From sequence record OP778610: a stretch of DNA of 64,000 nt; one strand, written 5' to 3'. Below are positions 10,001 to 64,000 of this stretch, in pieces. The notes beneath the pieces were generated by a model that was not told where the DNA came from, ran no database searches, and saw only the letters and a list, made by a program, of their open reading frames with translations. Source of the DNA: Escherichia phage W70. A program made the position numbers and the translations under genes. The number at the start of each line of letters is the position of its first letter. Within the stretch, counting starts at the first letter, position 1.

Positions 10001-10803
10001 AAGGTTACCTTATCCAAGGCGACTTCTGGGGTTGGACTGGTGCAGCATACGAGAACTTGGGTCGTATTCAAGGTCCGGTTGGACCAGTAGGTCCTACGGG
10101 TGACCAAGGACCACAAGGCCCTGTCGGTAACAAAGGCGATAAAGGCGACCAAGGGACCCTTTGGGTAGTTTTTGCTCGTGCACCAATGGTGAGCGATGGT
10201 CGTGTTAACGACCTGTACCTCAACTCTTCCACTCTGGAATATTACCGTAAAACTTCCGCAACGAACTGGGCACTGCTCGGATTCTTAGGTGGTGGTAACG
10301 TGTATGACGCACCAGGGGACGGAAAGCTGTATGTCCGTACTGATGGTGGTTGGGTTGAATTACCTACCGCAGAAGTTCTGGAAGCACCTCGTGATGGTAA
10401 CCAATACGTCCGTAAAGACGGCGCTTGGACAACTGTTACAGTTCCTGTAACGGAAGCACCACTTGAAGGTGGATTCTACGTCCGTGAAAATGGTGCGTGG
10501 GTTAAACTGGATCAGTACGATTTACGTGTTGTTGCTTCAACTGGTGCAATTGATGCAAGCTCTGGTAATGCTTGGACTTTAGATGGTACAACCAACAAGT
10601 CCTTGACTATCACCGGATTGCCAGCAGGAAGGGCTAAAACCATAGTTTTACGATTCACGGGTAACGGTGGTCAGATTAACTGGGATAGCCAGATCGCTTG
10701 GTCTAACGGAACAGCACCTACTCTCGGGGCTACTCGCACTATCCTAACCTTGTTCTGGGATGGTGAGTTCCTGACGGGTACTCAAGCAATGACTATAGGT
10801 TAA
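7003..10803 (+). CDS. collagen-like fibre protein with tail-fibre repeats
   Basis: 1266 aa; many Gly-X-Y tracts alternating with about eight copies of a roughly 50-aa module (ILGSVA..DQLP...GDAYLI...W.NVG) and three SAY...WL.SLKG tail-fibre-repeat motifs; non-collagenous C-terminal domain. Confidence 0.85.
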   Translation: MAEYNDKVVEAFVTAPDPVVTTTGGGVIFDGIETEDTVSTLLIGDGTASSPLQAQVKLSRRAGNALTIVQSDTEQGLFATAGDAKVSASQVNIAKYVTAEEAAAQGDAGLEGILVEPVHATTTAVGDALEITADPLTAKKSRISLKVSPSATNALSVESDGLAVKVSPAVDNSLQVREGALYVAPVGADISQDPGNKLEQRSDGLFVETIKGDKGDQGEQGPEGPQGPAGEAGPAGPQGEKGDKGDQGEVGPAGATGPAGLTGATGPRGIEGPRGPAGIGINILDTLASEDQLPSVVDLSNGDTYVIGQSFFTVITEGGIKQWRNVGNFAGPEGLSAFEVAETAGFVGTVDDWLATLRGADGIGLQLLGSFQRIEDLPAEENNPGDAYIIQEKMYVWTGDTDGWQPVGQIGPEGRSAYQVWLANGNVGSQREFLESLKGEKGDTGDQGPQGIPGADGKNANAINILGSVADQASLPEGADAGDAYLIGTNVFVSDGAGNWQDLGSFQGPQGPTGAKGDKGDKGDKGDKGDKGDDNYAIAVANGFQGSVNEYLASIKGEKGDVGATGPRGLAGPQGEQGPVGAGLNILGSVASEDQLPQTGISEGDAYLIEADLYIFTGGQWTNVGNIKGPQGDVGPQGPQGPIGLTGAQGPQGATGAQGPAGPQGETGPQGGIGPQGETGEKGDKGDKGDKGDTGIGIVARGIVATQEALPADATTGDFYVVESEGNGYAWDGTAWVLTGLTRGPQGLKGDKGDTGEKGDKGDKGDAGDALKLKGLVATSAELPSTAELGDFYVAEDTGIGYAWDGVEFVSAGTVRGPQGEVGPQGEIGPQGPQGEKGDAGDQGPQGLVGETGAKGDKGDKGDVGSGLIPRGTLPSQADLPQTGEVGDFYVANDTGIGYAFDGTTFVEAGVARGPQGEQGPQGEQGPQGLKGDTGETGAQGPQGAQGEKGDTGERGEVGPQGDQGPQGEQGPQGDIGPGVEIIGRFDTSDELPSTGTLGQGYLIQGDFWGWTGAAYENLGRIQGPVGPVGPTGDQGPQGPVGNKGDKGDQGTLWVVFARAPMVSDGRVNDLYLNSSTLEYYRKTSATNWALLGFLGGGNVYDAPGDGKLYVRTDGGWVELPTAEVLEAPRDGNQYVRKDGAWTTVTVPVTEAPLEGGFYVRENGAWVKLDQYDLRVVASTGAIDASSGNAWTLDGTTNKSLTITGLPAGRAKTIVLRFTGNGGQINWDSQIAWSNGTAPTLGATRTILTLFWDGEFLTGTQAMTIG
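8551..8604 (+). repeat. in-frame 9-bp tandem repeat encoding (GDK)n
   Basis: Six consecutive ggNgaYaaR nonamers encoding GDKGDKGDKGDKGDKGDD; shorter copies near 9049, 9246, 9570 and 10129. Confidence 0.8.
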
Positions 10804-32931: not shown

Positions 32932-34167
32932 ATGATCCCTTTTCCAATTATTAATTTCGGTGGCGGTGTTCCACTACCTGTAGGCGTTACAATCAAGTAT
33001 GCAGTAAGTACCAGCACCGGAAATATTTTTATTCTGCTTACCAATGGGCATCTATATGTAACCGGATCTAATTATCTAAACGGGCTTGGTAAAACAGGGA
33101 CCACAAATAATGCAACTTCGGGATGGTCACTTACTAACACAGGTGTTGAAGAAGTTTATGAGGTAGGAACAGAAAGTACACTGTACGGCGGTGTGTGGGT
33201 TAAGAAAAATAATAACCACTATGAATATATCTCTGCCGTAGTCTTTCCCACTGTTGACACAACTCTCCAAAACAGTTGGAACGTCTTGCCTGAATCCGCA
33301 TACATCGTTGATGGTGTAAATATCTTATCTTCAGCAATACAAATAGCCAGATCATACGCGATCCAACCCGACGGCACTGTTTACAGACTGCTTCCAGAGG
33401 GGCCGCAAGTAGCTTGGCCTGAAAAAACAAAATACCTGTATTTTGCAAACTATAATGCCATTCGTGTCGAGGTGGATGGGACTTTAAAATACCGAGGCGA
33501 CAATGGTGTAGATCAAGTGGCAGGCACTTCTGCCGGAACAACATTATCAACTTGGACAACCATCGGGGATTCTTCTGTAAGGTATATTAGGGCAAAATGT
33601 GCTCGTGGTCAAGTGGCTAACACGAGTGGCGGTTCAGGTGCTCAATCTATTGTACTTGTTGTTGCACAGAGGGAAGATGGGTCATGGGATGCAGTTGGAT
33701 CGACAGCAAGAGCAGGGATAAACTCAACCAACGTCCTCGGTCCTAATTTAGCACCTATGACAAGCATACCTGCGGGGGTTGAAGTTTATGTCACTAACCA
33801 GGTCAGTTATACAAACGCAAGTGTGGGAACAAGGGGAGCATTGCAAGTGTTCATCTCCGATAGGGTTAATGGCATCTATCAATCAACGGGTGGACAAGGT
33901 GGATACACCTATTCTTTATTTAGGAATCTTTCTATAACCACTAATGCAACATCTTTCGATAATATATCTGAAGATATTATAAACGATGGTGGTATCCTTC
34001 ACATGACGGGTTCATTATCCGATACTTTCAAAGTGATTGTTAGTGGTAATGGTAATCTTTACTGGACAGGGAGAGGATATTCAGGGGCTATGTACCCTGC
34101 TGACTTTACGGCCTCTAATACGATAGCTCAGAAGTTTAACTTGGAAGGTATAGTTATTCCAGCATAA
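32932..34167 (+). CDS. distal tail fibre or receptor-binding protein (putative)
   Basis: 411 aa ORF after the long fibre gene; last + strand gene before the convergent terminator. Confidence 0.4.
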   Translation: MIPFPIINFGGGVPLPVGVTIKYAVSTSTGNIFILLTNGHLYVTGSNYLNGLGKTGTTNNATSGWSLTNTGVEEVYEVGTESTLYGGVWVKKNNNHYEYISAVVFPTVDTTLQNSWNVLPESAYIVDGVNILSSAIQIARSYAIQPDGTVYRLLPEGPQVAWPEKTKYLYFANYNAIRVEVDGTLKYRGDNGVDQVAGTSAGTTLSTWTTIGDSSVRYIRAKCARGQVANTSGGSGAQSIVLVVAQREDGSWDAVGSTARAGINSTNVLGPNLAPMTSIPAGVEVYVTNQVSYTNASVGTRGALQVFISDRVNGIYQSTGGQGGYTYSLFRNLSITTNATSFDNISEDIINDGGILHMTGSLSDTFKVIVSGNGNLYWTGRGYSGAMYPADFTASNTIAQKFNLEGIVIPA

Positions 34168-34203
34168 AGAAAAGGCGCTCAAATGAGCGCCTTTATTTTT
34201 ATC
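34168..34203. terminator. bidirectional rho-independent terminator between convergent modules
   Basis: aaaggcgctc-aaatg-agcgccttt hairpin flanked by an A-run on one side and a T-run on the other. Confidence 0.7.
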
Positions 34204-34215
34204 TAAATTTTACGA

Positions 34216-35391
34216 TCAAAACGGAATATCGTCGTCAAAATCCATATCATCTACAGACATATTTACATGTCCTTCAATATCAGGGGTAGGTGAATCTTCT
34301 GCTGACGGAGTTAACTGCGGTTCCGGCTCAGGTTTCTTTTCCTCTTGCTTAGGAGTTGAAGCACCGTTACGGATCTTATCTTCCAATTGACAGATGAATC
34401 GGAAATTCTCTTCAGTCTTAGCAATAAAGGTTTCGATATTGTCACGACCCCAACGGGCAGAAAGAATGCCACACTGGCCTAAACGAGCACCGAAAGAGTA
34501 ATCATCCATAGATTTAAACTCTTCACGCAGTTTTGCTTTGATCGAATCCATCGCTGCAAGAACTTGTTCTACGATCACACCCTGATTTGCAATAGTTTCA
34601 TCAGGGAACATTGCATCGGTAATAGATAGTGCATTACCTAAACGAATAGGTAGATCATCTTTACCTTTACCTGAACGTGATCCTGTTCCAGTACTTGCAC
34701 CTTTTGGACCGTAAGCTTTAAAGCCTGTAACCGTACCATCATCTGAACGAACACCTGCAATACGACCACCTTCTGTAATCTGACCCGTCTGTTCATCAGT
34801 GAGGTTTACAGTAACTTCTGTGCCGTCTTCCAGCTTAACAACTACCTTATTGCCTTCGATAGATGTGATATCACCATAAATCTTCTTAGCTGCACCACCA
34901 GACGGCTTTTGCTGCTGTTGGGAACCACTTGATTGCTGCTGTTGCTGACGAGGCTCACGAGCACCGGATGCGTCAGTAATCTTGATACGTGCTTTCTTAC
35001 CTTCTGTAGAAGAACCTTGACTACCATCTTGTTTGGTATAGGTCTTGATAACAACAGGTAAACGAATTTTCATACCCTCTTTAAGATCGGTGTAACCACC
35101 TTCAGGATTTTTAATCTGGAACTGATTCTCATACTTCAGATTTTTAACTTCACCCTCACCAAAAGAAATCCATGCTTGATCTTCACCTTCTTTAAGAAGA
35201 ACCGCATAGCGGTGGGTATTGTTAATGCTTTTCTGCTGACCAGTATTCTTGTCTTTGAAGGTAGTCACTCGTGGGCTACCATCTTCATTAATACGTTTGA
35301 TCATGATACGTTCAATCGTACCTGCTGCAATGTTTACTGTGGTATCGGAAACAGCATCGTATACAGCATTGATAACTTTAACTTCAGACAT
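34216..35391 (-). CDS. ssb: single-stranded DNA-binding protein-like, with E. coli SSB-type acidic tip
   Basis: 391 aa; Gln/Gly-rich linker (QQQQQSSGSQQQQKPSGG); C-terminus DDMDFDDDIPF matches the E. coli SSB tip MDFDDDIPF as I recall it. Confidence 0.55.
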   Translation of the reverse strand: MSEVKVINAVYDAVSDTTVNIAAGTIERIMIKRINEDGSPRVTTFKDKNTGQQKSINNTHRYAVLLKEGEDQAWISFGEGEVKNLKYENQFQIKNPEGGYTDLKEGMKIRLPVVIKTYTKQDGSQGSSTEGKKARIKITDASGAREPRQQQQQSSGSQQQQKPSGGAAKKIYGDITSIEGNKVVVKLEDGTEVTVNLTDEQTGQITEGGRIAGVRSDDGTVTGFKAYGPKGASTGTGSRSGKGKDDLPIRLGNALSITDAMFPDETIANQGVIVEQVLAAMDSIKAKLREEFKSMDDYSFGARLGQCGILSARWGRDNIETFIAKTEENFRFICQLEDKIRNGASTPKQEEKKPEPEPQLTPSAEDSPTPDIEGHVNMSVDDMDFDDDIPF

Positions 35392-35474
35392 TTAAATCTC
35401 CTTTAACTATTGAACACACCACTTAAGGCCGAGAAACTATATTACAACTAACTTATTTGAATTGCAAACAACTT

Positions 35475-35855
35475 TTAGAGATAAACTCGCTTAACTTTTT
35501 CATGAACATTATCAAACAAAGTGTTGATCATCTGCAAGTCTTTAATAAGTTCTTCCGTAAATTGTTCTTCTTTGTGAGCAAACACACGAGAACGGTCAAT
35601 GTTTACAGGATCTGAACTTTGGTCGCCTGACAGATCGAAAATGTCGATACCGATACGAGCACGGCCTTTTTCAATCTTGTTGTTTTCATCAATACCGAAG
35701 ACACTCATGATTTGCATTTCACGATCTTCTTCACTGTTTGTGTAAATGATCGTCGTATTCAAATTCTTAACACCATCGTAAATGTGAATGTTACGTGTCG
35801 CAGAGATAGGAATCCAATCAGCAACCAAATAATCTTTACCGTCGAAAATACTCAT
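35475..35855 (-). CDS. hypothetical protein
   Basis: 126 aa ORF. Confidence 0.5.
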   Translation of the reverse strand: MSIFDGKDYLVADWIPISATRNIHIYDGVKNLNTTIIYTNSEEDREMQIMSVFGIDENNKIEKGRARIGIDIFDLSGDQSSDPVNIDRSRVFAHKEEQFTEELIKDLQMINTLFDNVHEKVKRVYL

Positions 35856-35909
35856 CTTCTTTCCTCTTTTGTTTAAGTGGGGCCATTATGCCCCACACTT
35901 AACTTTCTG
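35856..35909 (-). promoter_or_regulatory. sigma70-like promoter candidate overlapping a hairpin
   Basis: On the - strand, TTGACA, 17-nt spacer, CATAAT; the -10 sits in the loop of a GTGGGGC/GCCCCAC stem. Confidence 0.3.
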
Positions 35910-36482
35910 TCAAGGACGTTTCGGTGGACTAACGACACCTTTTTTAGATAAAGGTAATTCGTCTGCATCTTTTCCACGGAGAGATTCTAACCACTCATCT
36001 AAAGATAGAGGTACTTTGCCAACACCCTTGGACCATACAGATAAGCAATACAGGTCGTATGCAGATGGGCCAGCATCACCCTTGTCACCATACGGCCCTT
36101 TTAAACTCGCCAACCAATCCTTTTCATTCAGTGGGATAGTGCCTGGATCTTCTTGTCGAAGAACTCTTAGGTATGTTTCATAAGCAGACTCTCCACGGGG
36201 ACCCATTGGACCAGGTAAACCTTGCGGTCCCTTTGCATAGTCTAAATATGCAGACTTTGAACCATCATTGACCACTGAAACTTTATACAATGACCAAGCC
36301 AACAGAACTATCCAACAAGCAAACAATGCAAGCGGGTAAGGGATCATTGAAGTAAAGAATGACAGGGCTAAAATTACAACCTTGTTCTTGTGATCACGAC
36401 GGAAAGCGATGATCACAGGGGCTAACCAGATAGCAAAGATAACCCACGCAGATAAGATAAACAACCAACTAATGTATTCCAT
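35910..36482 (-). CDS. membrane protein: superinfection-immunity-like N-terminus fused to collagen and tail-fibre repeats
   Basis: 190 aa; N-terminal about 65 aa with two hydrophobic helices and motif PVIIAFRRDHKNKVVILALSFF; then GPQGLPGPMGPRG and two SAY...WL.SL(K/R)G repeats like those in the 7003-10803 fibre protein. Confidence 0.6.
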   Translation of the reverse strand: MEYISWLFILSAWVIFAIWLAPVIIAFRRDHKNKVVILALSFFTSMIPYPLALFACWIVLLAWSLYKVSVVNDGSKSAYLDYAKGPQGLPGPMGPRGESAYETYLRVLRQEDPGTIPLNEKDWLASLKGPYGDKGDAGPSAYDLYCLSVWSKGVGKVPLSLDEWLESLRGKDADELPLSKKGVVSPPKRP

Positions 36483-36670
36483 TAAGCCTCCTCAGTATCG
36501 TCTTTAAAGTAATCTAACATCCAACTCTCTACAGGTTTCGCATAGTAACCCGTTCGCCCTTTCTTTTGGAACTCCATAACAATTTCATTTGCAATACCTT
36601 TTGTGATTGCGATCCCGATCAGTGCACCACCAGGCCCCATTACTGCATGTGAACTAAGATCATTACTCAT
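36482..36670 (-). CDS. hypothetical small protein
   Basis: 62 aa ORF, ATGA overlap with the downstream gene. Confidence 0.4.
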   Translation of the reverse strand: MSNDLSSHAVMGPGGALIGIAITKGIANEIVMEFQKKGRTGYYAKPVESWMLDYFKDDTEEA

Positions 36671-36962
36671 TTTTAACCCCCTTCATTTTATCTCTTAAAC
36701 TTTGAGCATCCCACGTATAACCTGAGGAGATACCTTTTTCACGTTCACTATCTTTGAACTTGCAAATTACAGATTTTGCTTCACCATCAACAACAACCGC
36801 ATAACTGTTGTAGTAATTGTGTTGCTTCTTGCAAAATTCGTGTAACTCCTTGACCTCTATTGGCATCAGAGAAGGTAGATTTTTGTATCGCTTTGTCTGA
36901 TCATCTTCACCCTCTCCGCAACCAACAAGAAGAAGTATACATAAAATGATTAACCTTTTCAA
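36663..36962 (-). CDS. lipoprotein (putative)
   Basis: 99 aa; signal peptide with lipobox MKRLIILCILLLVGC; TTG start. Confidence 0.55.
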   Translation of the reverse strand: MKRLIILCILLLVGCGEGEDDQTKRYKNLPSLMPIEVKELHEFCKKQHNYYNSYAVVVDGEAKSVICKFKDSEREKGISSGYTWDAQSLRDKMKGVKNE

Positions 36963-37114
36963 TAGCTACCCCCAAAATATTTTGTAGTCTCTACTGCAAA
37001 TATTGTCCCAAGTATGAACCATGTCGCACTTAGCACGTTGAAAGGTAAAAACCTCGATCCTGCAAGAGAAACCATAATAAAAAACGTTACAAAAATCTCT
37101 GGAGGAATCATCAT
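36959..37114 (-). CDS. small hydrophobic protein (ORF missing from the track)
   Basis: 51 aa ORF MMIPPEIFVTFFIMVSLAGSRFLPFNVLSATWFILGTIFAVETTKYFGGSY; ATG overlaps the upstream stop (ATGA) and its stop overlaps the lipoprotein start. Confidence 0.3.
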   Translation of the reverse strand: MMIPPEIFVTFFIMVSLAGSRFLPFNVLSATWFILGTIFAVETTKYFGGSY

Positions 37115-37512
37115 TGTTTGATAGTCCCTTTGGCGATCATCTCGTCAAGTTCATCTTCCGCACGACACATGATTTGGTAGATAGTTTCTGGATTGTTTAA
37201 GAATTCTGTGTACTTCTTGATACGACAAACTAAACGTGCACGAACTTTACGCTCACGGGCCACATGATTAAAGTAATGTCCCTTTTGTCTGTAGACCCAA
37301 GCATAATATACAGTTTTTGCTCTCTGGCGATCAGAACCTAAACGTTCAGCTAATTCTGTGTACGGGTCATTGTTGGTTGGACCAAACAAAAATATTTCTG
37401 CAAAACTTTCCTTCATGATACGAGCTTCTTCATCCGTAACTCGCGGACATTCTTCAGAACCGTAACGTGGGGTTTTAGTGGCATTTGGCTTCTTAGGGTA
37501 TACTTTACGCAT
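37111..37512 (-). CDS. hypothetical protein
   Basis: 133 aa basic protein with SD. Confidence 0.5.
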   Translation of the reverse strand: MRKVYPKKPNATKTPRYGSEECPRVTDEEARIMKESFAEIFLFGPTNNDPYTELAERLGSDRQRAKTVYYAWVYRQKGHYFNHVARERKVRARLVCRIKKYTEFLNNPETIYQIMCRAEDELDEMIAKGTIKQ

Positions 37513-37579
37513 TTCATCACTCCTCTAATTAAAACTCTTACTCCCGATGTGAGGAGCCTTTCGGCCCCTCCCTTAAATA

Positions 37580-38188
37580 TCAATCACAACTGCTTGAAGA
37601 ACTGCTACTGCTACTATCCGAAGAATAACTATCGTAAGATGATGAGCTATCATACGAACTTGATCGACTTGGAGAACAGTAAGAACTTGAACTACTTGTA
37701 CGATCTTCACTGGATGACATTACGGCAGCATACGTTGCCACACCACCTAAAGCTGCCACCTGAGGATCAACCTGGCTAGTCCCGTACCCGTTTGGGGAGT
37801 CGCTCATCTTACGTGGTGCTGCCCGACGTGCCTGATCAATATACTGTCGCTTTGCCTTCGGCGGTAATTTCTTACCTTGAGCATAGGACGGTAATTCAAC
37901 GCCCTTCAGTTGTTCATCCAAGGACTTAGGCGGTGTAGCCTGAGCTTTTGGGCGTTCAATTGAGATATCTACAACCTTCATTGTTTTATCTTTAAGGTTT
38001 ACCCCTACCAACGCTTCATTTTCCTTTAGTGGTTCTTCTAAAGATCGTGTTTCAACTGGACTGAATTTAACGCTTGCAGTTTCTTGACGTTGTTCAGCTT
38101 GCTTTGCGATATACTTATCGATCGCCGCAGTTTCTACTTCCAGAGGAATAAATAATGATTTTACCCAAGCAACAAACTTCTTGATCAT
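37580..38188 (-). CDS. hypothetical protein with Ser/Tyr/Asp low-complexity tail
   Basis: 202 aa; C-terminal 45 residues almost entirely S, Y and D. Confidence 0.5.
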   Translation of the reverse strand: MIKKFVAWVKSLFIPLEVETAAIDKYIAKQAEQRQETASVKFSPVETRSLEEPLKENEALVGVNLKDKTMKVVDISIERPKAQATPPKSLDEQLKGVELPSYAQGKKLPPKAKRQYIDQARRAAPRKMSDSPNGYGTSQVDPQVAALGGVATYAAVMSSSEDRTSSSSSYCSPSRSSSYDSSSSYDSYSSDSSSSSSSSSCD

Positions 38189-38409
38189 ACTCTTTCTCCT
38201 TTTTCATCAATAACGATTAATGGCTCAATAACTAAAAGGCGCTGCTTCATAAGACTTTTTATAGTCTCATCGATATCAGATAGAAGAATATCTTTTTGAC
38301 TTTCTATCCAATTACGTGCTGCCTTTTCTGAAACAAATGCAATACCTTCTTGACCAATATCCCATTCACAGAATACTTTATACACCATCATCTTCTCCCT
38401 TGTCAACAT
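38185..38409 (-). CDS. hypothetical small protein
   Basis: 74 aa ORF, overlapping start/stop with neighbours. Confidence 0.45.
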   Translation of the reverse strand: MLTREKMMVYKVFCEWDIGQEGIAFVSEKAARNWIESQKDILLSDIDETIKSLMKQRLLVIEPLIVIDEKGERV

Positions 38410-38695
38410 TTTTCGGATTAAGTTTCTTTTCTGCGGCCTTCAAAATAATATCCAGCTTTTCAATTTCCTTATGTAAAGGCTCAGATAATAACTTCTCACC
38501 AAAAAGCCAGAATTTCTTCATGCCTTTCTTAACGCACTTTCCCATAAAGCCCGCGAGGTCTTCTAGTCGCCAAGCAATAAAACTAAATATTGCAGCTAAA
38601 AGGTGAATCAAGGCCAGTAGTAAACGATGCGGGTTTAGTACAGCAAGGCACAGGATCATAAAGATTATTTTAGTAAAACCCCAAATAATTTTCAT
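38378..38695 (-). CDS. small membrane protein
   Basis: 105 aa with two hydrophobic helices. Confidence 0.45.
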   Translation of the reverse strand: MKIIWGFTKIIFMILCLAVLNPHRLLLALIHLLAAIFSFIAWRLEDLAGFMGKCVKKGMKKFWLFGEKLLSEPLHKEIEKLDIILKAAEKKLNPKNVDKGEDDGV

Positions 38696-57316: not shown

Positions 57317-57506
57317 TATTTAGTTCCTCATATTCGTATGGGTAGATTTGATACTCTTTGTTGTCTTTTAGTGCGACGGCTGTAACACTTTCAACGTAAA
57401 AATCATCATCATAGTGTATTTCCTCAATTACGAGAATATCACCTTTCTTTGGATGATCATCACGATCACTGAAATCATTTAATAGCTTTATTTTTACGTT
57501 TTTCAT
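57309..57506 (-). CDS. hypothetical small protein
   Basis: 65 aa ORF. Confidence 0.4.
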   Translation of the reverse strand: MKNVKIKLLNDFSDRDDHPKKGDILVIEEIHYDDDFYVESVTAVALKDNKEYQIYPYEYEELNND

Positions 57507-57687
57507 ACAACATCTCCGCTGCTACAAGTGATAAGATCATTGCCATATACATCACAATAGAGGTCACACTGATTTGAATGAATAGTTCATCAGTAACATG
57601 ATTGAAGTAAACATTCTTTACATATCGAACCCCTATAAGCCAAAATGCCATCACCACAGCAAATGTTAGTATCATACGTTTTATCAT
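57475..57687 (-). CDS. small membrane protein
   Basis: 70 aa with two hydrophobic helices and a basic C-terminus; immediately downstream of the hydrolase. Confidence 0.45.
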   Translation of the reverse strand: MIKRMILTFAVVMAFWLIGVRYVKNVYFNHVTDELFIQISVTSIVMYMAMILSLVAAEMLYEKRKNKAIK

Positions 57688-58199
57688 TTCTTCTTCTCCT
57701 CTTTGTCTTTATAAAAGATGTGATTTTCTATGGTTACTGTTCTTTTTAGAAGTTTACGCCAAACGGGTTTAACCTTCTTCGTATGATAATACAGAGATCC
57801 ATATGTCGGGTCAAACCTTTTGTACAAAATCTCGTTATTTTTTAGCTTATGTACGAATTTTGATATACTAAGAGCACCCTCCCAAGAATCTTTATCTGTT
57901 ATATTATAGGAAGATTTGGTTAGTGTCCACGAGAACTGAGAGGCTTGATACACAACACCCTTCATAGTGGTTGGGAACTTATCATGCTTCATACGATTCA
58001 TAGTTACGAATGCAACAGCCATTTGACCATTGACCGTTTCTCCTCTCGCTTCCATATAAACATTGCAAGCTAAGGCATTAATAGAGTTATCCTTTTTAGT
58101 GCATTTGTGGATAACTTTCTGTGCTCTCTCTTTGGCATAAGTAACGCCTGGTGCCAGAGACAGAGTACAAATAAAACTATATAATACTAATTTCTTCAT
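57684..58199 (-). CDS. SleB/CwlJ-family cell-wall hydrolase with signal peptide
   Basis: 171 aa; N-terminal signal peptide, then NVYMEARGE...QMAVAFVTMNRM. Confidence 0.65.
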   Translation of the reverse strand: MKKLVLYSFICTLSLAPGVTYAKERAQKVIHKCTKKDNSINALACNVYMEARGETVNGQMAVAFVTMNRMKHDKFPTTMKGVVYQASQFSWTLTKSSYNITDKDSWEGALSISKFVHKLKNNEILYKRFDPTYGSLYYHTKKVKPVWRKLLKRTVTIENHIFYKDKEEKKK

Positions 58200-58245
58200 T
58201 TTCCCTCCAATTGAGGACCCAGCTTATCACTGGGTCGCTCTCTTG

Positions 58246-58632
58246 TCAACTACCTTCTGTATGCTTTTTAATTTGGTCAGCGATCCCTTTCCATAGGCCG
58301 TTAAGGAAAGGGTTGCTTGTGATTACCTCGCCTAACCAGGGGCCGTACAGGCGATATACGTAGTCATCTGTGATCGCATAGATACTTCCATCCCGTACAG
58401 CCAGTCCACGCACAAGAGATGTTGTTACACGACGGCCTGCGAATCCAGTTTTTTGATATTCAACTTCTGTATTCTCAATATAACCGACCAAATTCACAAG
58501 GTTTTGTGTCCCATCAATTGTAAAACCACACTTATTTTCAAGATCTTCTGAAATAGTGCTGATCCCTTCTAGTGAGAAGTTGCCACCGAACTTTAGGCCA
58601 TACTTAGCTGCAAGTTTATCGTGCGCTGTCAT
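58246..58632 (-). CDS. hypothetical protein
   Basis: 128 aa ORF. Confidence 0.5.
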   Translation of the reverse strand: MTAHDKLAAKYGLKFGGNFSLEGISTISEDLENKCGFTIDGTQNLVNLVGYIENTEVEYQKTGFAGRRVTTSLVRGLAVRDGSIYAITDDYVYRLYGPWLGEVITSNPFLNGLWKGIADQIKKHTEGS

Positions 58633-58823
58633 TTTACACTTTCCTTGATCAGTTGTTCAAAAGTTTCAACGGTCTGTGTGACATGTGCTGTACTTCCATC
58701 ACGGAAGACAACAACGGTACTTTCTTCCCCAAAATGATTACCTTCACGAAAGAGAAGAATCTCTTCTACTCGTAGTGCAACTTTAAGACCACCTTCACCT
58801 GCCAGATTTGCTTTTACGAACAT
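58629..58823 (-). CDS. hypothetical small protein
   Basis: 64 aa ORF. Confidence 0.4.
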   Translation of the reverse strand: MFVKANLAGEGGLKVALRVEEILLFREGNHFGEESTVVVFRDGSTAHVTQTVETFEQLIKESVK

Positions 58824-59014
58824 TATAAACCTCCCATGCTACGAAGAATAACATCTTTCATACGAATAAGGATTTCATTCTTATCCACTTCAGGAAAAAT
58901 TTCAACTAGTTTAATAAGTAAACTTCTTCCACTTTTGTACTCACCTGATCTTGCAAGGTGCAGGACAGTTCTTGCAAACTCTAACTCATCTAGAGGTACT
59001 TTTCCTTCAACCAT
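58823..59014 (-). CDS. hypothetical small protein
   Basis: 63 aa ORF. Confidence 0.4.
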   Translation of the reverse strand: MVEGKVPLDELEFARTVLHLARSGEYKSGRSLLIKLVEIFPEVDKNEILIRMKDVILRSMGGL

Positions 59015-59259
59015 TCCGCAGCCTCCTTTAAGTTATCAAACACCTTATAAGCAACGCCTGTGTATTCTGAATCCCAATCATCACTTGGATCATAATCCTC
59101 GTTAATTTCTTCCACATCCACATGATACTTACCTTCATAGTCTTTTTCAACAAGAATACGAAGATCGTGGTAGACAGAAGCTTCAATCTGATCGGCTATT
59201 TTGTCAAAGTAATCTCGATCTGTCATATCATACCCCGCAGCGTTGGAGGAAAGCCTCAC
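58990..59259 (-). CDS. hypothetical protein
   Basis: 89 aa acidic ORF; start probably at an internal Met to avoid overlap. Confidence 0.4.
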   Translation of the reverse strand: MRLSSNAAGYDMTDRDYFDKIADQIEASVYHDLRILVEKDYEGKYHVDVEEINEDYDPSDDWDSEYTGVAYKVFDNLKEAAEWLKEKYL

Positions 59260-59479
59260 AGATACATAAGAAATCTTCCCTTTCTATATTTTTGATATCC
59301 ATACCAATCTCTTTGAACAGTTTGGGAAGATCAAGAACCTTTGCGTCCTTGTGCAACTTAAAATAACCATCCTTGTCATAAGGGATCTTTTCAAGAAAGA
59401 GAATATCTGGATTATCAGAGCCTTTTGTTTTTGTTGCTAAGTAATCATAAATATCTTCACGAGGTACTGGCTTCTTCAT
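59228..59479 (-). CDS. hypothetical protein
   Basis: 83 aa ORF. Confidence 0.45.
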   Translation of the reverse strand: MKKPVPREDIYDYLATKTKGSDNPDILFLEKIPYDKDGYFKLHKDAKVLDLPKLFKEIGMDIKNIEREDFLCICEAFLQRCGV

Positions 59480-59480
59480 A

Positions 59481-59912
59481 TTATTCTCCTGTTAAATTTA
59501 ACTTGTCGCCTTTCCGCATTTCAAGAAAGGCTTTCAGATCTCCAAACTTGGTTTCAGCAAATGCAGAACCTGCCGGAGCTTTGTTATAATCCCAGTTATC
59601 TTTGGCCTCGTCAATATCACCATGTAGGTTCGTGAACTCATTTTTGAACTCGCGCACAGACCACTTGACAGAACGATGACGAGTAGGGATATAGTTGGAA
59701 ACAGAGGCATAACTAAGTCGCTTCTGAACCTCATCAATAATACCCTTTACCTTCAACTCGAACAACTTCCGAAACACGGGGTGGATAAGGTCGTCAGGGG
59801 CATCTACATACACACGAGTAAGCCCAGGGTGGTGATTGAAGCTGACCTCAATCTTGTTGCGACTCTTACCTTCCCGTACTGTTACCATATATTTACCGAT
59901 TTCAAATTTCAT
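59481..59912 (-). CDS. hypothetical protein
   Basis: 143 aa ORF. Confidence 0.5.
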   Translation of the reverse strand: MKFEIGKYMVTVREGKSRNKIEVSFNHHPGLTRVYVDAPDDLIHPVFRKLFELKVKGIIDEVQKRLSYASVSNYIPTRHRSVKWSVREFKNEFTNLHGDIDEAKDNWDYNKAPAGSAFAETKFGDLKAFLEMRKGDKLNLTGE

Positions 59913-59955
59913 CTATAAAGCCCTCTCTGTTTCCAATGAGGGCAGAATACATGAC

Positions 59956-60150
59956 TTACTCTACCGAGTCAACCGTTTCAACAAAGATAATCTTACCATA
60001 TTTCAGCTTTCGACGGTTGTCACCTTTGTGGGTGTGGACCACAGGGTTAAATGACCCAATATCATTGCAGTGTTTCCAGCCAGAACGGGTAGAAAACTGC
60101 TTAACGATAGCCGAAAAGTCTTCCGGCTTTAACTCAATCATATGCTCCAT
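59956..60150 (-). CDS. hypothetical small protein
   Basis: 64 aa ORF. Confidence 0.4.
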   Translation of the reverse strand: MEHMIELKPEDFSAIVKQFSTRSGWKHCNDIGSFNPVVHTHKGDNRRKLKYGKIIFVETVDSVE

Positions 60151-60188
60151 TACATCTCCTTTCGTGGTAAACTTCTTTACAAGATTAT

Positions 60189-60584
60189 TTACTCGTCAAC
60201 AACTTTCCAACTCCAAAGATAACCATCTTTAGGCATAGTTGAACCTTTAACAAATACGGTTGCGTTATAAAGATCATCTTCGTTCGGCAAATCTTCTAAA
60301 AGTTTAAACTCAATATTGTTATACTCATTATAGATAATTTGTGCACGAAGTCTCTTTCCTACTCGGACAGAACTAGTTTCTGATCGAATACATTCAATAA
60401 GGTAGCCCTTTTCATAAGAAACTTCTTCACGAGATACCTTATAAACCCTAACCAATGCAGGAAATTCTTTTTGTATTTTCAAAGCTGTATGCTGCGCTTC
60501 TTGTTCACTATCATAGCCTTTGAAAAATTTAAAAACTTCACCTTCCCACTTGATCCAGACTTCATATTCTTTTTCCATATTCAC
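60189..60584 (-). CDS. hypothetical protein
   Basis: 131 aa ORF. Confidence 0.5.
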   Translation of the reverse strand: MNMEKEYEVWIKWEGEVFKFFKGYDSEQEAQHTALKIQKEFPALVRVYKVSREEVSYEKGYLIECIRSETSSVRVGKRLRAQIIYNEYNNIEFKLLEDLPNEDDLYNATVFVKGSTMPKDGYLWSWKVVDE

Positions 60585-60587
60585 CTC

Positions 60588-60905
60588 TTAAGAAATAAGT
60601 TGGATTTTTGGACCTTTTTCTTTTTCTGCTTGACGCAGGCGATCACGAACATACAGTTCGATATCAGTTGGTCGCCACAATTCAACGATGACCACATCAA
60701 AACGATTTTCGTGAGCACCAGGTTGTTTATTCATGTGACTTGCCATCAGGTCTGCACTCTCTTGATCAGCAAATACAGCTTTCGCTACGATTGTTTTACC
60801 GTCTTCAGTTTGTCCCATACTCATGCTCGGGATGTTGTGACCTGCATCATTATCACGAATGGCAAACACAAGGGTAGTTTCAGCATTTTTCAGAAAGTCA
60901 GTCAT
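60588..60905 (-). CDS. hypothetical protein
   Basis: 105 aa ORF. Confidence 0.5.
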   Translation of the reverse strand: MTDFLKNAETTLVFAIRDNDAGHNIPSMSMGQTEDGKTIVAKAVFADQESADLMASHMNKQPGAHENRFDVVIVELWRPTDIELYVRDRLRQAEKEKGPKIQLIS

Positions 60906-61119
60906 TAATAATCTCCACGTCAGAATTGATATCAGTTTTATAAAAAAGTCCCAGAGTTTCTGCGACCTCTATGAAAACAGCATCTCCAGATACAACAGCA
61001 TCAGAAGTTGCGTATACTTTATTATAAATCGGTTGTCCTGTAAAGTCCCGATCGACAATATATTTAAACTTTTGGCCTTTCTTTACATCACGGGCCTTGA
61101 TCAGTTTAACATTAATCAT
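60898..61119 (-). CDS. hypothetical small protein
   Basis: 73 aa ORF. Confidence 0.45.
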   Translation of the reverse strand: MINVKLIKARDVKKGQKFKYIVDRDFTGQPIYNKVYATSDAVVSGDAVFIEVAETLGLFYKTDINSDVEIIND

Positions 61120-61807
61120 CGGTACTCCCTATTTGTAATGGTACAATACCTAAAGCTTCCAAGCCTGCCTCTACAACCTTACGATTTACAGAAGCTTCGA
61201 ACTCTGCTTGTGCTTTCGCCTTAACAACCTCGGAGTTTTCCTTAAACACGTTGATCGCATGTTGAGTGATATCCGGCAGCTTTGAATGAACACGAGTGAT
61301 CTTATTCTTAAGTTCAGTCAATTCTTTCTTTGTTGCCTTACCTTTCTCAATAAGTTGCTGGACTTCAATTACGGCTTCCAGATGGTCCTTTAAAAGATCT
61401 TTTAAGTCTTTATCCACGTTCAAGCCGATCATGTCAGAACTATTTTGTTGTCCCTCAATGCCAGGAACATATCCATCGCCCTTGATATATCTTAATGTAA
61501 TTGGTACGCCTTGTCCACTATGAGATGCAACTAACTCTGCCCATTGGTAAGATGTTAATTCAATCTCAATGATACGAGAGTTTCGTGACGTATAATAAGA
61601 CGGCAAACCATAAGAGATCTCCTGGTATGCGGTATCAATACGTAAACAAACACGTTGATTGTGGGTAGTATCTGATCCGAACATTTCCACATTCCCACCA
61701 GTTGGGTGAGTGATTGATGCCAACCCATAAGCTGGATGTGTCTGGATTACACGTTCAAATACCCCAGCTTCAGACAATTTTACTTCGGGCTTCATTACGT
61801 TTCTCAT
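61112..61807 (-). CDS. hypothetical protein
   Basis: 231 aa ORF with a predicted coiled-coil C-terminal third. Confidence 0.5.
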   Translation of the reverse strand: MRNVMKPEVKLSEAGVFERVIQTHPAYGLASITHPTGGNVEMFGSDTTHNQRVCLRIDTAYQEISYGLPSYYTSRNSRIIEIELTSYQWAELVASHSGQGVPITLRYIKGDGYVPGIEGQQNSSDMIGLNVDKDLKDLLKDHLEAVIEVQQLIEKGKATKKELTELKNKITRVHSKLPDITQHAINVFKENSEVVKAKAQAEFEASVNRKVVEAGLEALGIVPLQIGSTDD

Positions 61808-61815
61808 AAAATCCC

Positions 61816-62016
61816 CTATTTTATTTTTACAATGTGTTTAGAAGTTCTTCGGATTCTTTGGGTCCTTGTCCAAGTTGGGTCAACATACTCTATTTCTGCC
61901 AGACCCTTACTCGGGATGATTCTGGTGATAATACCCTTAAATATAGTTTTACGATCGTCATATGTAAAAGCTACTTTGTCACCAACTTTGATCTCTGTAC
62001 CCATTAAATCTTTCAA
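61816..62016 (-). CDS. hypothetical small protein
   Basis: 66 aa ORF. Confidence 0.4.
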   Translation of the reverse strand: MKDLMGTEIKVGDKVAFTYDDRKTIFKGIITRIIPSKGLAEIEYVDPTWTRTQRIRRTSKHIVKIK

Positions 62017-62020
62017 ATCA

Positions 62021-62245
62021 TCAACCCCGTCTTTCTTTCAATTCCTGTAAGAACAACTCATCAGCAAGATTATTTAAACTTTCTGCCAGATTGCGAGCTT
62101 GTTCACGAGTGACACGAATACCAACAGAATCACAACCTTCGCGATCACAATAGTCAATACCGATTAGGATTTTACCTTTTTCAGTTGAAGGCGTAATATT
62201 AATTTCTGCCTGATAATCTACGCCAATGTCCTGGAATGTCATCAT
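62021..62245 (-). CDS. hypothetical small protein
   Basis: 74 aa ORF. Confidence 0.4.
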   Translation of the reverse strand: MMTFQDIGVDYQAEINITPSTEKGKILIGIDYCDREGCDSVGIRVTREQARNLAESLNNLADELFLQELKERRG

Positions 62246-62399
62246 TTTGTGTATACCTCTTGTATTTCTGCGATTAATGTTTCAGAGGAACTGGCAATCT
62301 CTGCTCGGACTTCCTCTGCTTTTTCTTTGTCTTCAAATAAGGTTGGATGAATTTGAGCATCCTCTCCACAATACAGACACAGTATAGCATAATACTTCA

Positions 62400-62762
62400 T
62401 TACTCGTTACCTTTTTCTTCTTCATGCGGTTTAACAATAATCTCTTCAATAATCTTAGGGTCAATGCTTTTAGTATACATAAAAGTATAAAGCGCCGTTT
62501 TCAAAGATGCACGTTTACCATAGTAATGATCTGTGATGCCATTCTGTTTTGACAGTTTATGAATCTCCACTATTTTACTTTCAACTTCTTCGTTGGAGAT
62601 CTCTATATACTCGACTGCTGACATGCGTTCGATAAATATTGCATTAAGACCGTATAACTTGGCATCTCGCTCCACGTACTCTTTAAATCGCTGCCACTCT
62701 ACCTCATCTTTGATAAGGTCTGCGATCTTAAAGATTACTGGATGTTTGTGTGATTCAGTCAT
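62400..62762 (-). CDS. hypothetical protein
   Basis: 120 aa ORF. Confidence 0.5.
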   Translation of the reverse strand: MTESHKHPVIFKIADLIKDEVEWQRFKEYVERDAKLYGLNAIFIERMSAVEYIEISNEEVESKIVEIHKLSKQNGITDHYYGKRASLKTALYTFMYTKSIDPKIIEEIIVKPHEEEKGNE

Positions 62763-62817
62763 TTATTTCTCCTCGTTTGTTTTGATAGGGTCATATTACA
62801 TGACCCTTGATATAGTG

Positions 62818-63075
62818 TCAACTAAAAATTAAAGAAACAACGTGGTAAATTACTTGAGGGACGATGATCAGGAAGTACAGATCAACAAATCCCGAGAGAA
62901 AGTGATAAGCCTTCAGCTTTGTACGTTTACCTTTGTAAAAATCATAGATGATTTTGAAATATTTATAAAGATTCCTTAAAAGTCCAAAACCGATCAACCC
63001 CAATCCCGTAAGAACCACAACAAACAATGAAAACTGCACGTCCGCACTAAAAACACCAATAATAAGATCTAACAT
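62818..63075 (-). CDS. small membrane protein
   Basis: 85 aa with two hydrophobic helices. Confidence 0.45.
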   Translation of the reverse strand: MLDLIIGVFSADVQFSLFVVVLTGLGLIGFGLLRNLYKYFKIIYDFYKGKRTKLKAYHFLSGFVDLYFLIIVPQVIYHVVSLIFS

Positions 63076-63350
63076 TAAATTTCCTCCAAATCAGACTCTA
63101 CAATATAGATACCTGGTGAAACTCTATAAGCCCAAGTGTTAAAAGTACAAGAATACATAATTCCTTTTACTCTGTAAGTTTTATTTGCAAACTGGCTCAC
63201 AGGGTTAGTGACTTTCACCATTGTGTCACTTGCAAACTTTGGCATACCATGCTGTGAAATTGCTTCACGATCAATCTTATAAACATCTCTCCCAAAGAAC
63301 TTTTCCAGTGGGCAAAGATTATTCTCAAAATCAGTACCCATAGTCAACAT
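63075..63350 (-). CDS. hypothetical protein
   Basis: 91 aa ORF. Confidence 0.45.
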   Translation of the reverse strand: MLTMGTDFENNLCPLEKFFGRDVYKIDREAISQHGMPKFASDTMVKVTNPVSQFANKTYRVKGIMYSCTFNTWAYRVSPGIYIVESDLEEI

Positions 63351-63597
63351 TTCCTGTAATTACCGAAGTGCTTTTGGTTGTCTTGCCATTTGAAGTCTGA
63401 ACATGAGTATCTGCATGAGGGCAATATACTACATTTAGATTCACATGACTCGGACCAGATTCAAGACGATAAATCTTACAACCTGCCTTTTCCATTTCTT
63501 GTGGCAAAACATAACCGAAAGTCTTATCGACAGCCGACTTTTGATCACAACCAGAAATGAAACACAGCATAAAAATCGCAGCAATAATCTTTTTCAT
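63331..63597 (-). CDS. lipoprotein (putative)
   Basis: 88 aa; signal peptide with lipobox MKKIIAAIFMLCFISGC. Confidence 0.5.
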   Translation of the reverse strand: MKKIIAAIFMLCFISGCDQKSAVDKTFGYVLPQEMEKAGCKIYRLESGPSHVNLNVVYCPHADTHVQTSNGKTTKSTSVITGNVDYGY

Positions 63598-63944
63598 TTT
63601 ACCTCCATCATAAACACTTTAACTTTTCGTATCTCTAATCTTACTTTATTAGAGCCTTGAAGTCTATTTCTTTTTTCAACCGCATCATTAATATCACCAT
63701 AAAAGTAGTGATCCTTGCCTATTGTCGGTATTCCATTACCGCCTTGCATAGCCAGTGTATACATTTCCTTTCCACCTTGCAACCCTTTTGATACCTTTTC
63801 TTCAAAATATTTATTGAATTGGGTTGGTGAGGTATCAATCTTTGCATCTTCTTCCCATCCCATAACTTTATCCCAAAAACGGTCAATCTTGTCAAGAACT
63901 TTATTACTAATCTTTTTAATCTTCTTCAACATAATCTTCCCCAT
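63594..63944 (-). CDS. hypothetical protein
   Basis: 116 aa ORF; ATGA overlap with the lipoprotein gene. Confidence 0.45.
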   Translation of the reverse strand: MGKIMLKKIKKISNKVLDKIDRFWDKVMGWEEDAKIDTSPTQFNKYFEEKVSKGLQGGKEMYTLAMQGGNGIPTIGKDHYFYGDINDAVEKRNRLQGSNKVRLEIRKVKVFMMEVK

Positions 63945-64000
63945 TATTTATTTGGATACCGAAACGATTTTCGTTAGTGGAAAAGAAACCATTTTCCATG

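Follow-up and report, generated by a model that had tools for sequence, protein, structure and literature searches.

We have found that two adjacent small genes, gp114 and gp115, form a conserved pair that probably alters the envelope of the infected cell, perhaps with exclusion of other phages as its role. In Septuagintavirus and Certrevirus genomes the pair is the core of a dispensable accessory island that closes a long minus-strand operon on its 3′ side. In the best reading, to which we give a probability of about 0.4, the predicted inner-membrane peptide gp114 and the predicted lipoprotein gp115 would act as a periplasmic block of phage entry, by analogy with Imm and Spackle of phage T4.

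The sequence of the region is that of Escherichia phage A73, with identity throughout, and the genome belongs to the genus Septuagintavirus (Vequintavirinae). Positions are those of the window, i.e. the whole stretch of 64,000 nt that was analysed. The features of the island are as follows.

35475..35855, minus strand: gp118 (A73_118), DUF7325 protein (Pfam, 1.1e-27), downstream end of the accessory island
35910..36482, minus strand: gp117 (A73_117), 190-aa membrane protein with a divergent Imm_superinfect-like N-terminus
36482..36670, minus strand: gp116 (A73_116), 62-aa acidic soluble protein, pI 4.8, without a signal peptide
36663..36962, minus strand: gp115 (A73_115), predicted 99-aa lipoprotein precursor with a TTG start; phrog_15849 (function unassigned)
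36918..36962, minus strand: gp115 signal peptide and lipobox MKRLIILCILLLVGC, as read from the sequence and with a PS51257-like rule
36918-36920, minus strand: codon of gp115 Cys15, the predicted site of lipidation
36960-36962, minus strand: TTG start codon of gp115, overlapping the gp114 stop codon (TTGA)
36968..36973, minus strand: Shine-Dalgarno-like GGGGGT for gp115, 5 nt upstream of the TTG and within the last gp114 codons
36959..37114, minus strand: gp114 (A73_114), predicted 51-aa inner-membrane peptide; phrog_22594 (function unassigned)

The three ORFs of the original prediction, of 62 aa (36482-36670), 99 aa (36663-36962) and 51 aa (36959-37114), are present at exactly these positions, all on the minus strand. 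They are real genes, and gp114, gp115 and gp116 are under purifying selection (pN/pS 0.06-0.25 in the Septuagintavirus genomes compared, with 0.06-0.29 given for gp114). The shortest ORF had been described as hydrophobic, which is right, and as unannotated, which is true of CR8 but not of the public record, where it is A73_114. The proposed coupling by ATGA overlaps holds for the gp113/gp114 junction only (37111-37114); gp114 and gp115 meet in TTGA, the start codon there being TTG, gp115 and gp116 overlap by 8 nt, and gp116/gp117 is TAATG. Overlapping junctions make up 9 of the 18 in the operon (counted from the annotation table), and therefore an overlap does not define a module. That overlaps are common throughout the operon was counted against the exclusion reading.

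The operon with the cassette also encodes a DNA polymerase and an SSB-like protein and ends at a bidirectional terminator. Because the operon carries replication genes, we infer early or middle timing for it. In a promoter and terminator scan, promoter-like sites were no commoner than in shuffled sequence and no signal bounding the cassette was seen. Going from gp115 to the virion genes, which are convergent, one passes gp116, gp117, gp118, the SSB-like gene and the terminator. The cassette is non-virion, with none of its PHROGs found among the 28 virion proteins of W70 (PMC11370258). The make-up of the island differs by lineage. Of the 18 loci examined, 17 keep the gp118 gene (CB7 alone lacks it), while gp116 and the Imm-like gene are each present or absent. 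Some ORFs are lineage-specific: lineages L016 and L025 have a 75-aa zinc-ribbon-like ORF, CR8 has one of 220 aa and L015 has one for a 677-aa DUF8224 protein.

The gp115 protein is convincingly predicted from its sequence to be a lipoprotein, as had been claimed for the ORF at 36663-36962. Its signal, MKRLIILCILLLVGC|GE, carries basic residues K2/R3, a 10-residue hydrophobic core and the lipobox LVGC with Cys15. It passes the rule modelled on PROSITE PS51257 (a basic N-terminal region, a hydrophobic core and [LVI][ASTVI][GAS]C with Cys at position 15-35), as do just two gene-like ORFs in the window, gp115 included. Shuffled sequence yields 1.8 +/- 1.4 matches to this rule, therefore a lone lipobox could be due to chance. 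Residues L12, G14, C15, C44 and C67 are invariant over 10 aligned gp115 homologues (alignment A1, 29-94% identity), and the lipobox Cys together with the later Cys pair recurs in all 15 loci examined. Upstream of the gp115 relatives a GGGGGT, GGAGGT or GGGAGG sequence is conserved; the TTG start is conserved in Septuagintavirus genomes, with GTG or ATG used in other lineages.

The AlphaFold2 model of gp115 has an overall pLDDT of 77.6, with the core above 90. In the modelled mature form of 85 aa a tether of ~18 residues, acidic and of low confidence, leads to a 65-aa α-β-β-β-α domain that contains the conserved Cys44/Cys67 pair. The extra conserved Cys pair fits the oxidising periplasm, as in Spackle and Llp, and the domain is probably stabilised by a disulfide bond.

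Under the Lol-avoidance rule, Asp at position +2 of a lipoprotein predicts retention in the inner membrane. The +2 residue of gp115 is Gly in A73 and Asp in 3 of 13 sequence variants (CDL, CDD and CDS). Such variability argues against an obligatory outer-membrane partner and fits a periplasmic target accessible from either membrane.

The gp115 family is small: an exhaustive phmmer search of 1.84e9 representative proteins gave 8 clusters, a word-indexed search gave 2 relatives and a scan of IMG/VR gave 1 locus. Searches with gp115 in Pfam, PHROGs, NCBIfam and PADLOC returned just function-unassigned families or sub-threshold signal-peptide matches (dsrm, Ibs_toxin and EexN), PDB sequence profiles returned nothing, and no fold relative was found among solved proteins, T5 Llp and T4 Spackle included. 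We rejected gp115 as a paralogue of the o-spanin or of the second lipoprotein of the phage, the likeness being confined to the signal peptide. The divergence of gp115 (40-44% identity) tracks that of its neighbours gp112, gp113 and the SSB-like protein (40-53%), and within the genus gp115 is under ordinary purifying selection with no arms-race signature, a point that was counted against the exclusion reading.

The partner of gp115 is predicted from hydropathy to be a membrane hairpin. The gp114 peptide has two hydrophobic helices, at about residues 6-20 and 25-42, and between them, in the hairpin, the conserved basic R21; it has neither a periplasmic domain nor a coiled coil. It was found in 27 phage records. 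A gp114 homologue sits directly upstream of the lipoprotein gene in 14 of 15 lipoprotein-bearing loci, the exception being phage SSBI34, where none was detected; in SSBI34 and L015 the same slot is taken by a non-homologous membrane ORF with one or two helices. The gp114-gp115 linkage is conserved: the two are adjacent in Septuagintavirus and Certrevirus, in phage SSBI34 and in metagenomic relatives. The idea of an envelope module stands for these two predicted envelope proteins but not for gp116. The maximum 15-residue hydropathy of gp116 is marginal, and its model, built with database homologues, is a small soluble β-β-α-β-α domain most like ClpS; gp116 is probably cytoplasmic and, as such, not an envelope component. 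A status of genus-only ORFan was rejected for gp116, since homologues were found in metagenomic relatives.

The neighbouring gp117 has an N-terminal two-helix membrane domain with a PxxxAxxxxHxN loop, in which P22, A26, H31 and N33 are invariant (alignment A2). This domain is followed by collagen-like Gly-X-Y repeats, two units of the tail-fibre type 'SAY...WLxSLxG' and a conserved C-terminal DADE[LI]PLSKxGV motif. The collagen-SAY...WLxSLKG module is shared with the major fibre-like virion protein of the phage (ORF 7003-10803), and the C-terminal part of gp117 is predicted to be periplasmic. Against Imm_superinfect (PF14373) gp117 scores 18.8 bits and its best relative (from SSBI34) 25.0 bits, below the gathering threshold of 27.9. 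This position under the Pfam threshold was counted against the exclusion reading. The match of gp117 to phrog_1039 has a value of 8.9e-6, and hhalign aligns it with Imm of the T4-like phage S13 at 96% probability (E 3.9e-9), S13 Imm itself scoring 64 bits on PF14373. Profile-level homology and the two-helix architecture, with its conserved basic loop, suggest that gp117 is distantly homologous to a genuine Imm_superinfect protein.

In 28 phage records the Imm-like gene is found along with the lipoprotein gene, which it follows in most lineages. To this extent the link to an immunity-like gene made in the original prediction is supported; it fails in L015, L016 and L025, which keep the lipoprotein and have no Imm-like gene, and therefore the link could reflect one shared variable island.

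The cassette is dispensable, having been naturally deleted in viable phages. In A7_1, which plates on K-12, the mature gp115 domain is lost and only the signal peptide is left. In CB7 a deletion scar spans gp114 to a 61-aa membrane gene, and the island is lost, including gp115, gp117 and gp118. For phiTE we found no match to the lipoprotein, gp114 or the Imm-like protein. Dispensability is what one expects for an exclusion or accessory function.

In the arrangement that we infer for gp114-gp115(-gp117), which takes in topology, complex formation and exclusion function alike, gp114 would be a hairpin peptide in the inner membrane. Translation of gp115 would begin at a weak TTG that overlaps the gp114 stop codon. 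After Sec-dependent export, lipidation at Cys15 and cleavage by signal peptidase II, the protein would be suspended in the periplasm by a flexible ~18-residue tether bearing the small α/β domain. The two proteins would act in the periplasm of an already infected cell. In most lineages they would do so together with the Imm-like gp117, which is predicted to extend a collagen-like stalk into the periplasm. The step blocked would be a post-adsorption step of the second infection, either penetration of the cell wall or delivery of DNA by the incoming tail. The gp116 protein would be a soluble cytoplasmic passenger or partner, outside the envelope machinery.

The imm and sp genes of T4, the latter encoding an inhibitor of the tail lysozyme, are early and dispensable, and they are unlinked, whereas the lipoprotein and Imm-like genes are adjacent here. 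The likeness between the two systems lies in a virulent myovirus with dispensable genes for an Imm_superinfect-type two-helix inner-membrane protein and a small exported periplasmic protein with a Cys pair. Mature Spackle (Sp) is a soluble α-helical bundle of 75 aa with a Cys pair (PMC7677548), while mature gp115, of 85 aa, is modelled as an α-β-β-β-α domain on a lipid anchor, and no similarity between the two could be detected; only a functional analogy is proposed. The systems differ also in that T4 Imm has no collagen-like stalk and that gp114 is an extra two-helix peptide partner. No lipoprotein adjoining Imm was found in the T4-like phage S13.

EexN/TrbK-type lipoproteins of conjugative plasmids are small and block DNA entry from a related element. 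The match of gp115 to NCBIfam EexN (13.4 bits, E 0.054) falls far short of the 33-bit cut-off and lies mostly within the signal peptide; it does not speak for homology.

It is possible, if rather unlikely, that the genes have no shared function: the stretch between gp113 and the SSB-like gene would be an island of hypervariable content, made up of small accessory genes that are unrelated to one another, and the pair would have some other envelope role. Such a role might be to inhibit a peptidoglycan hydrolase (the secreted SleB-like endolysin of the phage itself or a lysozyme-like one), to counter a membrane-based host defence or to interfere with the flagellar basal body. The variation of island content between lineages and the loss of nothing but the lipoprotein in A7_1 agree with this, but against it stand the constant pairing of peptide and lipoprotein and the presence of the Imm-like gene alongside in the 28 phage records. 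For hydrolase inhibition one can cite the signal peptide of the SleB-like endolysin, as well as CB7 and phiTE, reported to be the sole Certreviruses in which a T5-like peptidase replaces the lysozyme-like enzyme (PMC7344957), which are without the island (CB7) or without matches to the cassette (phiTE). However, this correlation comes from a single lineage, CB7 retains the SleB-like enzyme without the cassette (PMC7344957), and gp115 has no fold match to the Ivy, MliC or Pli inhibitors. Flagellar interference would suit the report of flagella as the primary receptor of Certrevirus (PMC11370258).

Llp of T5 and Cor of T1/phi80 are small lipoproteins of phages that can do without them in the laboratory, and the blocking of receptors by the lipoprotein, as the original prediction had it, would be of this type. 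Here gp115 would bind the periplasmic face of an outer-membrane receptor, preventing further adsorption as well as loss of progeny on debris. We consider this improbable. As a small dispensable lipoprotein with a Cys pair gp115 does resemble Llp, which has a stabilising disulfide bond (PMC9586334) and which is described as produced shortly after infection; the Gly at +2 in A73 predicts outer-membrane sorting, and the tail-fibre and virion genes, which are convergent, lie within a few genes of the island. Yet gp115 is unlike Llp, or any solved protein, in sequence and structure, its gene adjoins no receptor-binding gene and is paired with that of an inner-membrane peptide, and its divergence follows that of its neighbours rather than a receptor-linked diversification. 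The outer-membrane sorting signal is not conserved: inner-membrane retention is predicted for the Asp variants. Because this residue varies, we take masking of the Llp type to be less likely than an Imm/Spackle-like block.

A more elaborate form of exclusion is, in our estimate, quite improbable: gp114, gp115 and gp117 would together make a periplasm-spanning device that intercepts the tail tube or a tail-associated cell-wall hydrolase, or that disables the periplasmic part of the flagellar motor, which would be the primary receptor. The inner membrane would provide one anchor of such a device and, via the lipoprotein, either membrane another; the clade is possibly flagellotropic. If real, it would be a mechanistically new form of superinfection exclusion in a virulent myovirus.

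A lysis function, with gp115 as an o-spanin-like or lysis-regulating protein and gp114 as a holin- or antiholin-like one, is very improbable: a lipoprotein beside a small membrane protein is superficially spanin/holin-like, and the overlap of the lipoprotein gene with the preceding stop codon, that of a membrane-protein gene, recalls Rz/Rz1, but the cassette is missing from viable phages, gp114 has no periplasmic domain or coiled coil, gp115 is o-spanin-like in the signal-peptide region only, and the lysis genes lie elsewhere. The Rz/Rz1-like pair A73_154/153 (phrog_4297, phrog_1267) adjoins the terminase gene, a location on which published analyses agree (PMC7344957; PMC12942863; HIDEN-SEQ preprint). 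Thus gp115 was rejected as an o-spanin, the true pair being beside the terminase gene, gp115 and gp114 matching no PHROG spanin family and gp114 being a 51-aa hairpin. A lysis cassette was likewise rejected by location, since the SleB-like hydrolase (57684-58199) and a 70-aa two-helix holin candidate sit at 57475-58199. A further peptidoglycan hydrolase, of the transglycosylase type, is reported for KEC4.

Among virulent phages of Gram-negative bacteria, few proteins for superinfection exclusion or envelope remodelling are understood mechanistically, T4 Imm, Spackle, T5 Llp and Cor being the main ones cited. Should the clade-restricted pair prove to be an exclusion factor, it would contribute an unrelated fold, as well as a novel arrangement in which a hairpin peptide and a tethered lipoprotein go with an Imm domain carried on a collagen-like stalk. 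It would also offer an easy experimental system, with E. coli K-12 as host and the natural lipoprotein-null A7_1 to be compared with its close relative A5-4, and could affect the design of phage cocktails with Septuagintavirus or Certrevirus. Otherwise gp115 is one more uncharacterised accessory lipoprotein.

A second pair of a lipoprotein and a membrane protein had been placed at 62818-63597. Its two members are as follows.

62818-63075: two-helix membrane protein (by hydropathy)
63331-63597: second lipoprotein (predicted), lipobox FISGC, Asp at +2

Both are present, but they are not neighbours, as a 91-aa soluble ORF lies between them. The family of this second pair is unrelated to gp114-gp115 and much broader.

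The three small genes of the original prediction were found exactly where it had placed them, on the minus strand towards the 3' end of a long, densely packed leftward operon that includes the DNA polymerase gene. Two of them, gp114 and gp115, make up the cassette considered here; the numbering follows Escherichia phage A73.

36959-37114, minus strand: gp114, membrane peptide, 51 aa
36663-36962, minus strand: gp115, lipoprotein, 99 aa, TTG start
36482-36670, minus strand: gp116, 62 aa

In pairwise comparisons of Septuagintavirus genomes, pN/pS was 0.06-0.29 for gp114, 0.10-0.25 for gp115 and 0.06-0.15 for gp116; these are real coding genes. The record of phage A73 (OP778609, Vequintavirinae, genus Septuagintavirus) annotates each as a hypothetical protein, so the earlier description of the 51-aa ORF as unannotated does not hold for that public entry. 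Window bases 35400-38200 are 100% identical to A73, whereas bases 58000-64000 are only ~91% identical, with coordinates shifted by ~1 kb; the window therefore derives from a mosaic phage closely related to A73 and not from the A73 record. The genes had also been described as coupled by ATGA overlaps. The overlaps are real, but ATGA occurs at the gp113/gp114 junction only: gp114/gp115 is TTGA and uses the TTG start (with a Shine-Dalgarno sequence, GGGGGT, 5 nt upstream), gp115 and gp116 overlap by 8 nt, and gp116 and gp117 have one base in common (TAATG). Since 9 of the 18 junctions in this operon overlap, as counted from the annotation table, overlap alone is no marker of a module.

The gp115 signal (MKRLIILCILLLVGC followed by GEG) passes the PS51257-type rule, as does just one other gene-like ORF in the window. 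Shuffled sequence gave ~1.8 chance matches, and the lipobox pattern alone is therefore weak evidence. Conservation, by comparison, argues strongly for the predicted lipoprotein: L12, G14 and C15, together with Cys44 and Cys67, are invariant in ten aligned homologues with identities of 94% down to 29%, and in 15 of 15 loci examined the lipobox Cys is present, as is the later pair. The extra pair would fit an oxidising periplasmic location; Spackle (PMC7677548) and Llp (PMC9586334) each have such a disulfide bond.

In the AlphaFold2 model of gp115 (mean pLDDT 77.6, >90 at residues 30-70) an acidic, low-confidence tether follows the lipid-attachment Cys and leads to an α-β-β-β-α domain. This domain is without an informative relative. 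It has two significant matches in BFVD (100% and 29% identity), which we take to be family members, and a sequence-profile search against the whole PDB gave no match. In Pfam, PHROGs, NCBIfam and PADLOC only sub-threshold signal-peptide matches were found besides phrog_15849, the gp115 family itself (unknown function). The family is very small: eight clusters turned up in 1.84 billion representative proteins, and tblastn placed members in 27 phage records. Asp at position +2 keeps a lipoprotein in the inner membrane (the Lol-avoidance rule). Ten gp115 variants carry G, K, N, L or F here; the other three (CDL, CDD and CDS) carry Asp, for which the rule predicts retention in the inner membrane.

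The 51-aa ORF proved to be hydrophobic as described: gp114 (phrog_22594) has two hydrophobic segments with a conserved Arg or Lys between them. A homologue lies directly upstream of the lipoprotein gene in 14 of the 15 lipoprotein-bearing loci examined, an adjacency seen in Septuagintavirus, Certrevirus and metagenomic relatives. The slot is filled by a non-homologous 58-aa two-helix ORF in SSBI34 and by a 79-aa one-helix ORF in the most divergent contig (L015). We are quite confident that gp115 is truly an exported lipoprotein and that its gene is paired with that of a membrane peptide.

A second lipoprotein and membrane protein pair had been noted at 62818-63597. Both members are present, but a 91-aa soluble ORF lies between them.

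63331-63597, minus strand: second lipoprotein, FISGC, Asp at +2
62818-63075, minus strand: 85-aa two-helix membrane protein near the second lipoprotein

Given its Asp at +2, this lipoprotein is predicted to stay in the inner membrane. It belongs to a broad family (phrog_902; 200 phage records including Felixounavirus and 121Q-type jumbo phages) and is unrelated to gp115.

Comparison of gene presence and absence over 18 loci, together with tblastn distributions, revealed that an accessory island of variable content separates the gp113 gene from an SSB-like gene that ends the operon.

34216-35391, minus strand: SSB-like gene, last of the leftward operon, 391 aa, 'hypothetical protein'
34171-34194: likely bidirectional terminator, perfect 10-bp stem-loop with T-runs on both sides

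The 391-aa protein (phrog_4477, unknown function) is probably the SSB-like protein of the phage; its C-terminus, ...MDFDDDIPF, matches the acidic tip of E. coli SSB, and it adjoins the island also in Certrevirus, Seunavirus and other relatives. The stem-loop lies between this gene and a convergent virion gene (32932-34167) and likely closes both transcription units, with convergent virion and tail-fibre genes on its far side.

The peptide and lipoprotein pair is the constant part of the island, while gp116, a 220-aa ORF, a 75-aa zinc-ribbon-like ORF, a DUF8224 protein and a 57-63-aa membrane protein vary by lineage. Each of the 28 GenBank phage records has an Imm-like gene (gp117) after the pair, as do most metagenomic relatives; the loci L015, L016 and L025 lack it. 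The island is dispensable. In phage CB7 a deletion scar (L011 3905-4081) marks where the gp114-like gene, reduced to its 5' part (...TFVILFILVAMAGTR), runs into the 3' part of the gene for the 61-aa membrane protein (...GVVHGVGVWFGVW); everything between them is gone. In phiTE tblastn gave no match to the lipoprotein, gp114 or Imm-like gene. In phage A7_1, which plates on K-12, a ~225-bp deletion (L010 2756-2892, corresponding to window 36663-36962) leaves a 21-codon gp115 remnant (MKRLIILCILLLVGCGENKGG, then stop) consisting of the signal peptide, lipobox and six more codons, with the ribosome-binding site of the next gene kept. A7_1 is a natural lipoprotein-null phage that can be set against its close relative A5-4.

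The N-terminal 70 residues of gp117 are a divergent version of the Imm_superinfect domain. In Pfam gp117 scores 18.8 bits (25.0 for the best relative), under the 27.9 cut-off; the match to phrog_1039, 'immunity to superinfection', has a value of 8.9e-6, and hhalign gives 96% probability against Imm of the T4-like phage S13, a protein with a PF14373 score of 64 bits. A positively charged loop between the two helices places the C-terminal part, by prediction, in the periplasm. That part carries collagen-like Gly-X-Y repeats and a conserved end, DADE[IL]PLSKxGV, kept in all relatives. In Septuagintavirus (35910-36482, minus strand) the stalk also has two 'SAY...WLxSLxG' units, common to a collagen-like ORF at 7003-10803 (plus strand; 41% identity over 49 aa). 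The size of the latter (1266 aa) matches W70_131, an abundant 129-kDa virion protein in the W70 proteome (PMC11370258), to which it probably corresponds. Such a fusion of an immunity-type membrane anchor to a tail-fibre-like stalk is unusual.

The pair is predicted to encode an exported, lipid-anchored periplasmic domain and an inner-membrane hairpin peptide, sits in an operon with replication genes, usually adjoins an Imm-type protein and is dispensable; it is also non-structural, none of the cassette families being among the 28 W70 virion proteins (PMC11370258). We propose, with a probability of roughly 40%, that it works in superinfection exclusion as a functional analogue of T4 Imm plus Spackle (PMC7677548): from within the periplasm of the infected cell, the proteins would stop a second infection at a step after adsorption.

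It is somewhat less probable that the island collects unrelated accessory genes and that the pair has another envelope role, candidates being peptidoglycan hydrolase inhibition, countering of host defence and flagellar interference. A weak lead in this direction is that CB7 and phiTE, the former having lost the island and the latter giving no match to its genes, are reported to be the only Certreviruses with a T5-like peptidase replacing the lysozyme-like enzyme of their relatives (PMC7344957), but this correlation stems from a single lineage.

Receptor masking by gp115 of the Llp/Cor type (PMC9586334), as originally suggested, appears improbable; exclusion is preferred because the +2 sorting residue is not conserved (the Asp variants pointing to the inner membrane), because gp114, the partner that stays constant, is predicted to sit in the inner membrane, and because gp115 diverges in step with its neighbours rather than running ahead. 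Receptor use argues against masking less cleanly than first expected: Vequintavirus phages have glycan receptors (PMC8594841), but flagella are the reported receptor of Certrevirus phages, which have tail-fibre proteins in common with Septuagintavirus (PMC11370258), so a protein co-receptor could still be involved. What the original prediction had observed holds for the most part, with errors in several details; its interpretation is plausible, with receptor blocking the less likely version.

A lysis role is very improbable, since the candidate lysis genes are scattered elsewhere, with the spanins (A73_154 and A73_153; phrog_4297 and phrog_1267) directly upstream of the terminase gene, outside the window, as published analyses of CB7, KEC4 and Bas54 concur (PMC7344957; PMC12942863; HIDEN-SEQ preprint), and two further genes within it:

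57684-58199, minus strand: SleB-like cell-wall hydrolase, secreted, with a cleavable-looking signal peptide
57475-57687, minus strand: 70-aa two-helix ORF overlapping the hydrolase gene, holin candidate, the counterpart of a class II holin candidate suggested for CB7

The cassette genes are already public, as hypothetical proteins in records and as unknown-function families in PHROGs, and no characterisation was found in the Certrevirus and Septuagintavirus literature consulted. The cassette would count, at most, as a variant among the accessory proteins that virulent phages have for the envelope or for exclusion; distinctive are its unrelated fold and its unusual Imm-plus-collagen-stalk neighbour.

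The region around the cassette is rich in small genes targeted to the envelope. The same operon encodes a further two-helix membrane protein of 105 aa (38378-38695, minus strand), and in Certrevirus a conserved 57-63-aa membrane protein adjoins the DUF7325 protein (L004 5734-5919; L005 5054-5239). Finally, gp112 (37580-38188, minus strand) has a long Ser/Tyr/Asp-rich low-complexity tail ending in '...SCD', a C-terminus kept across genera in homologues from Certrevirus, SSBI34 and Seunavirus 4MG.
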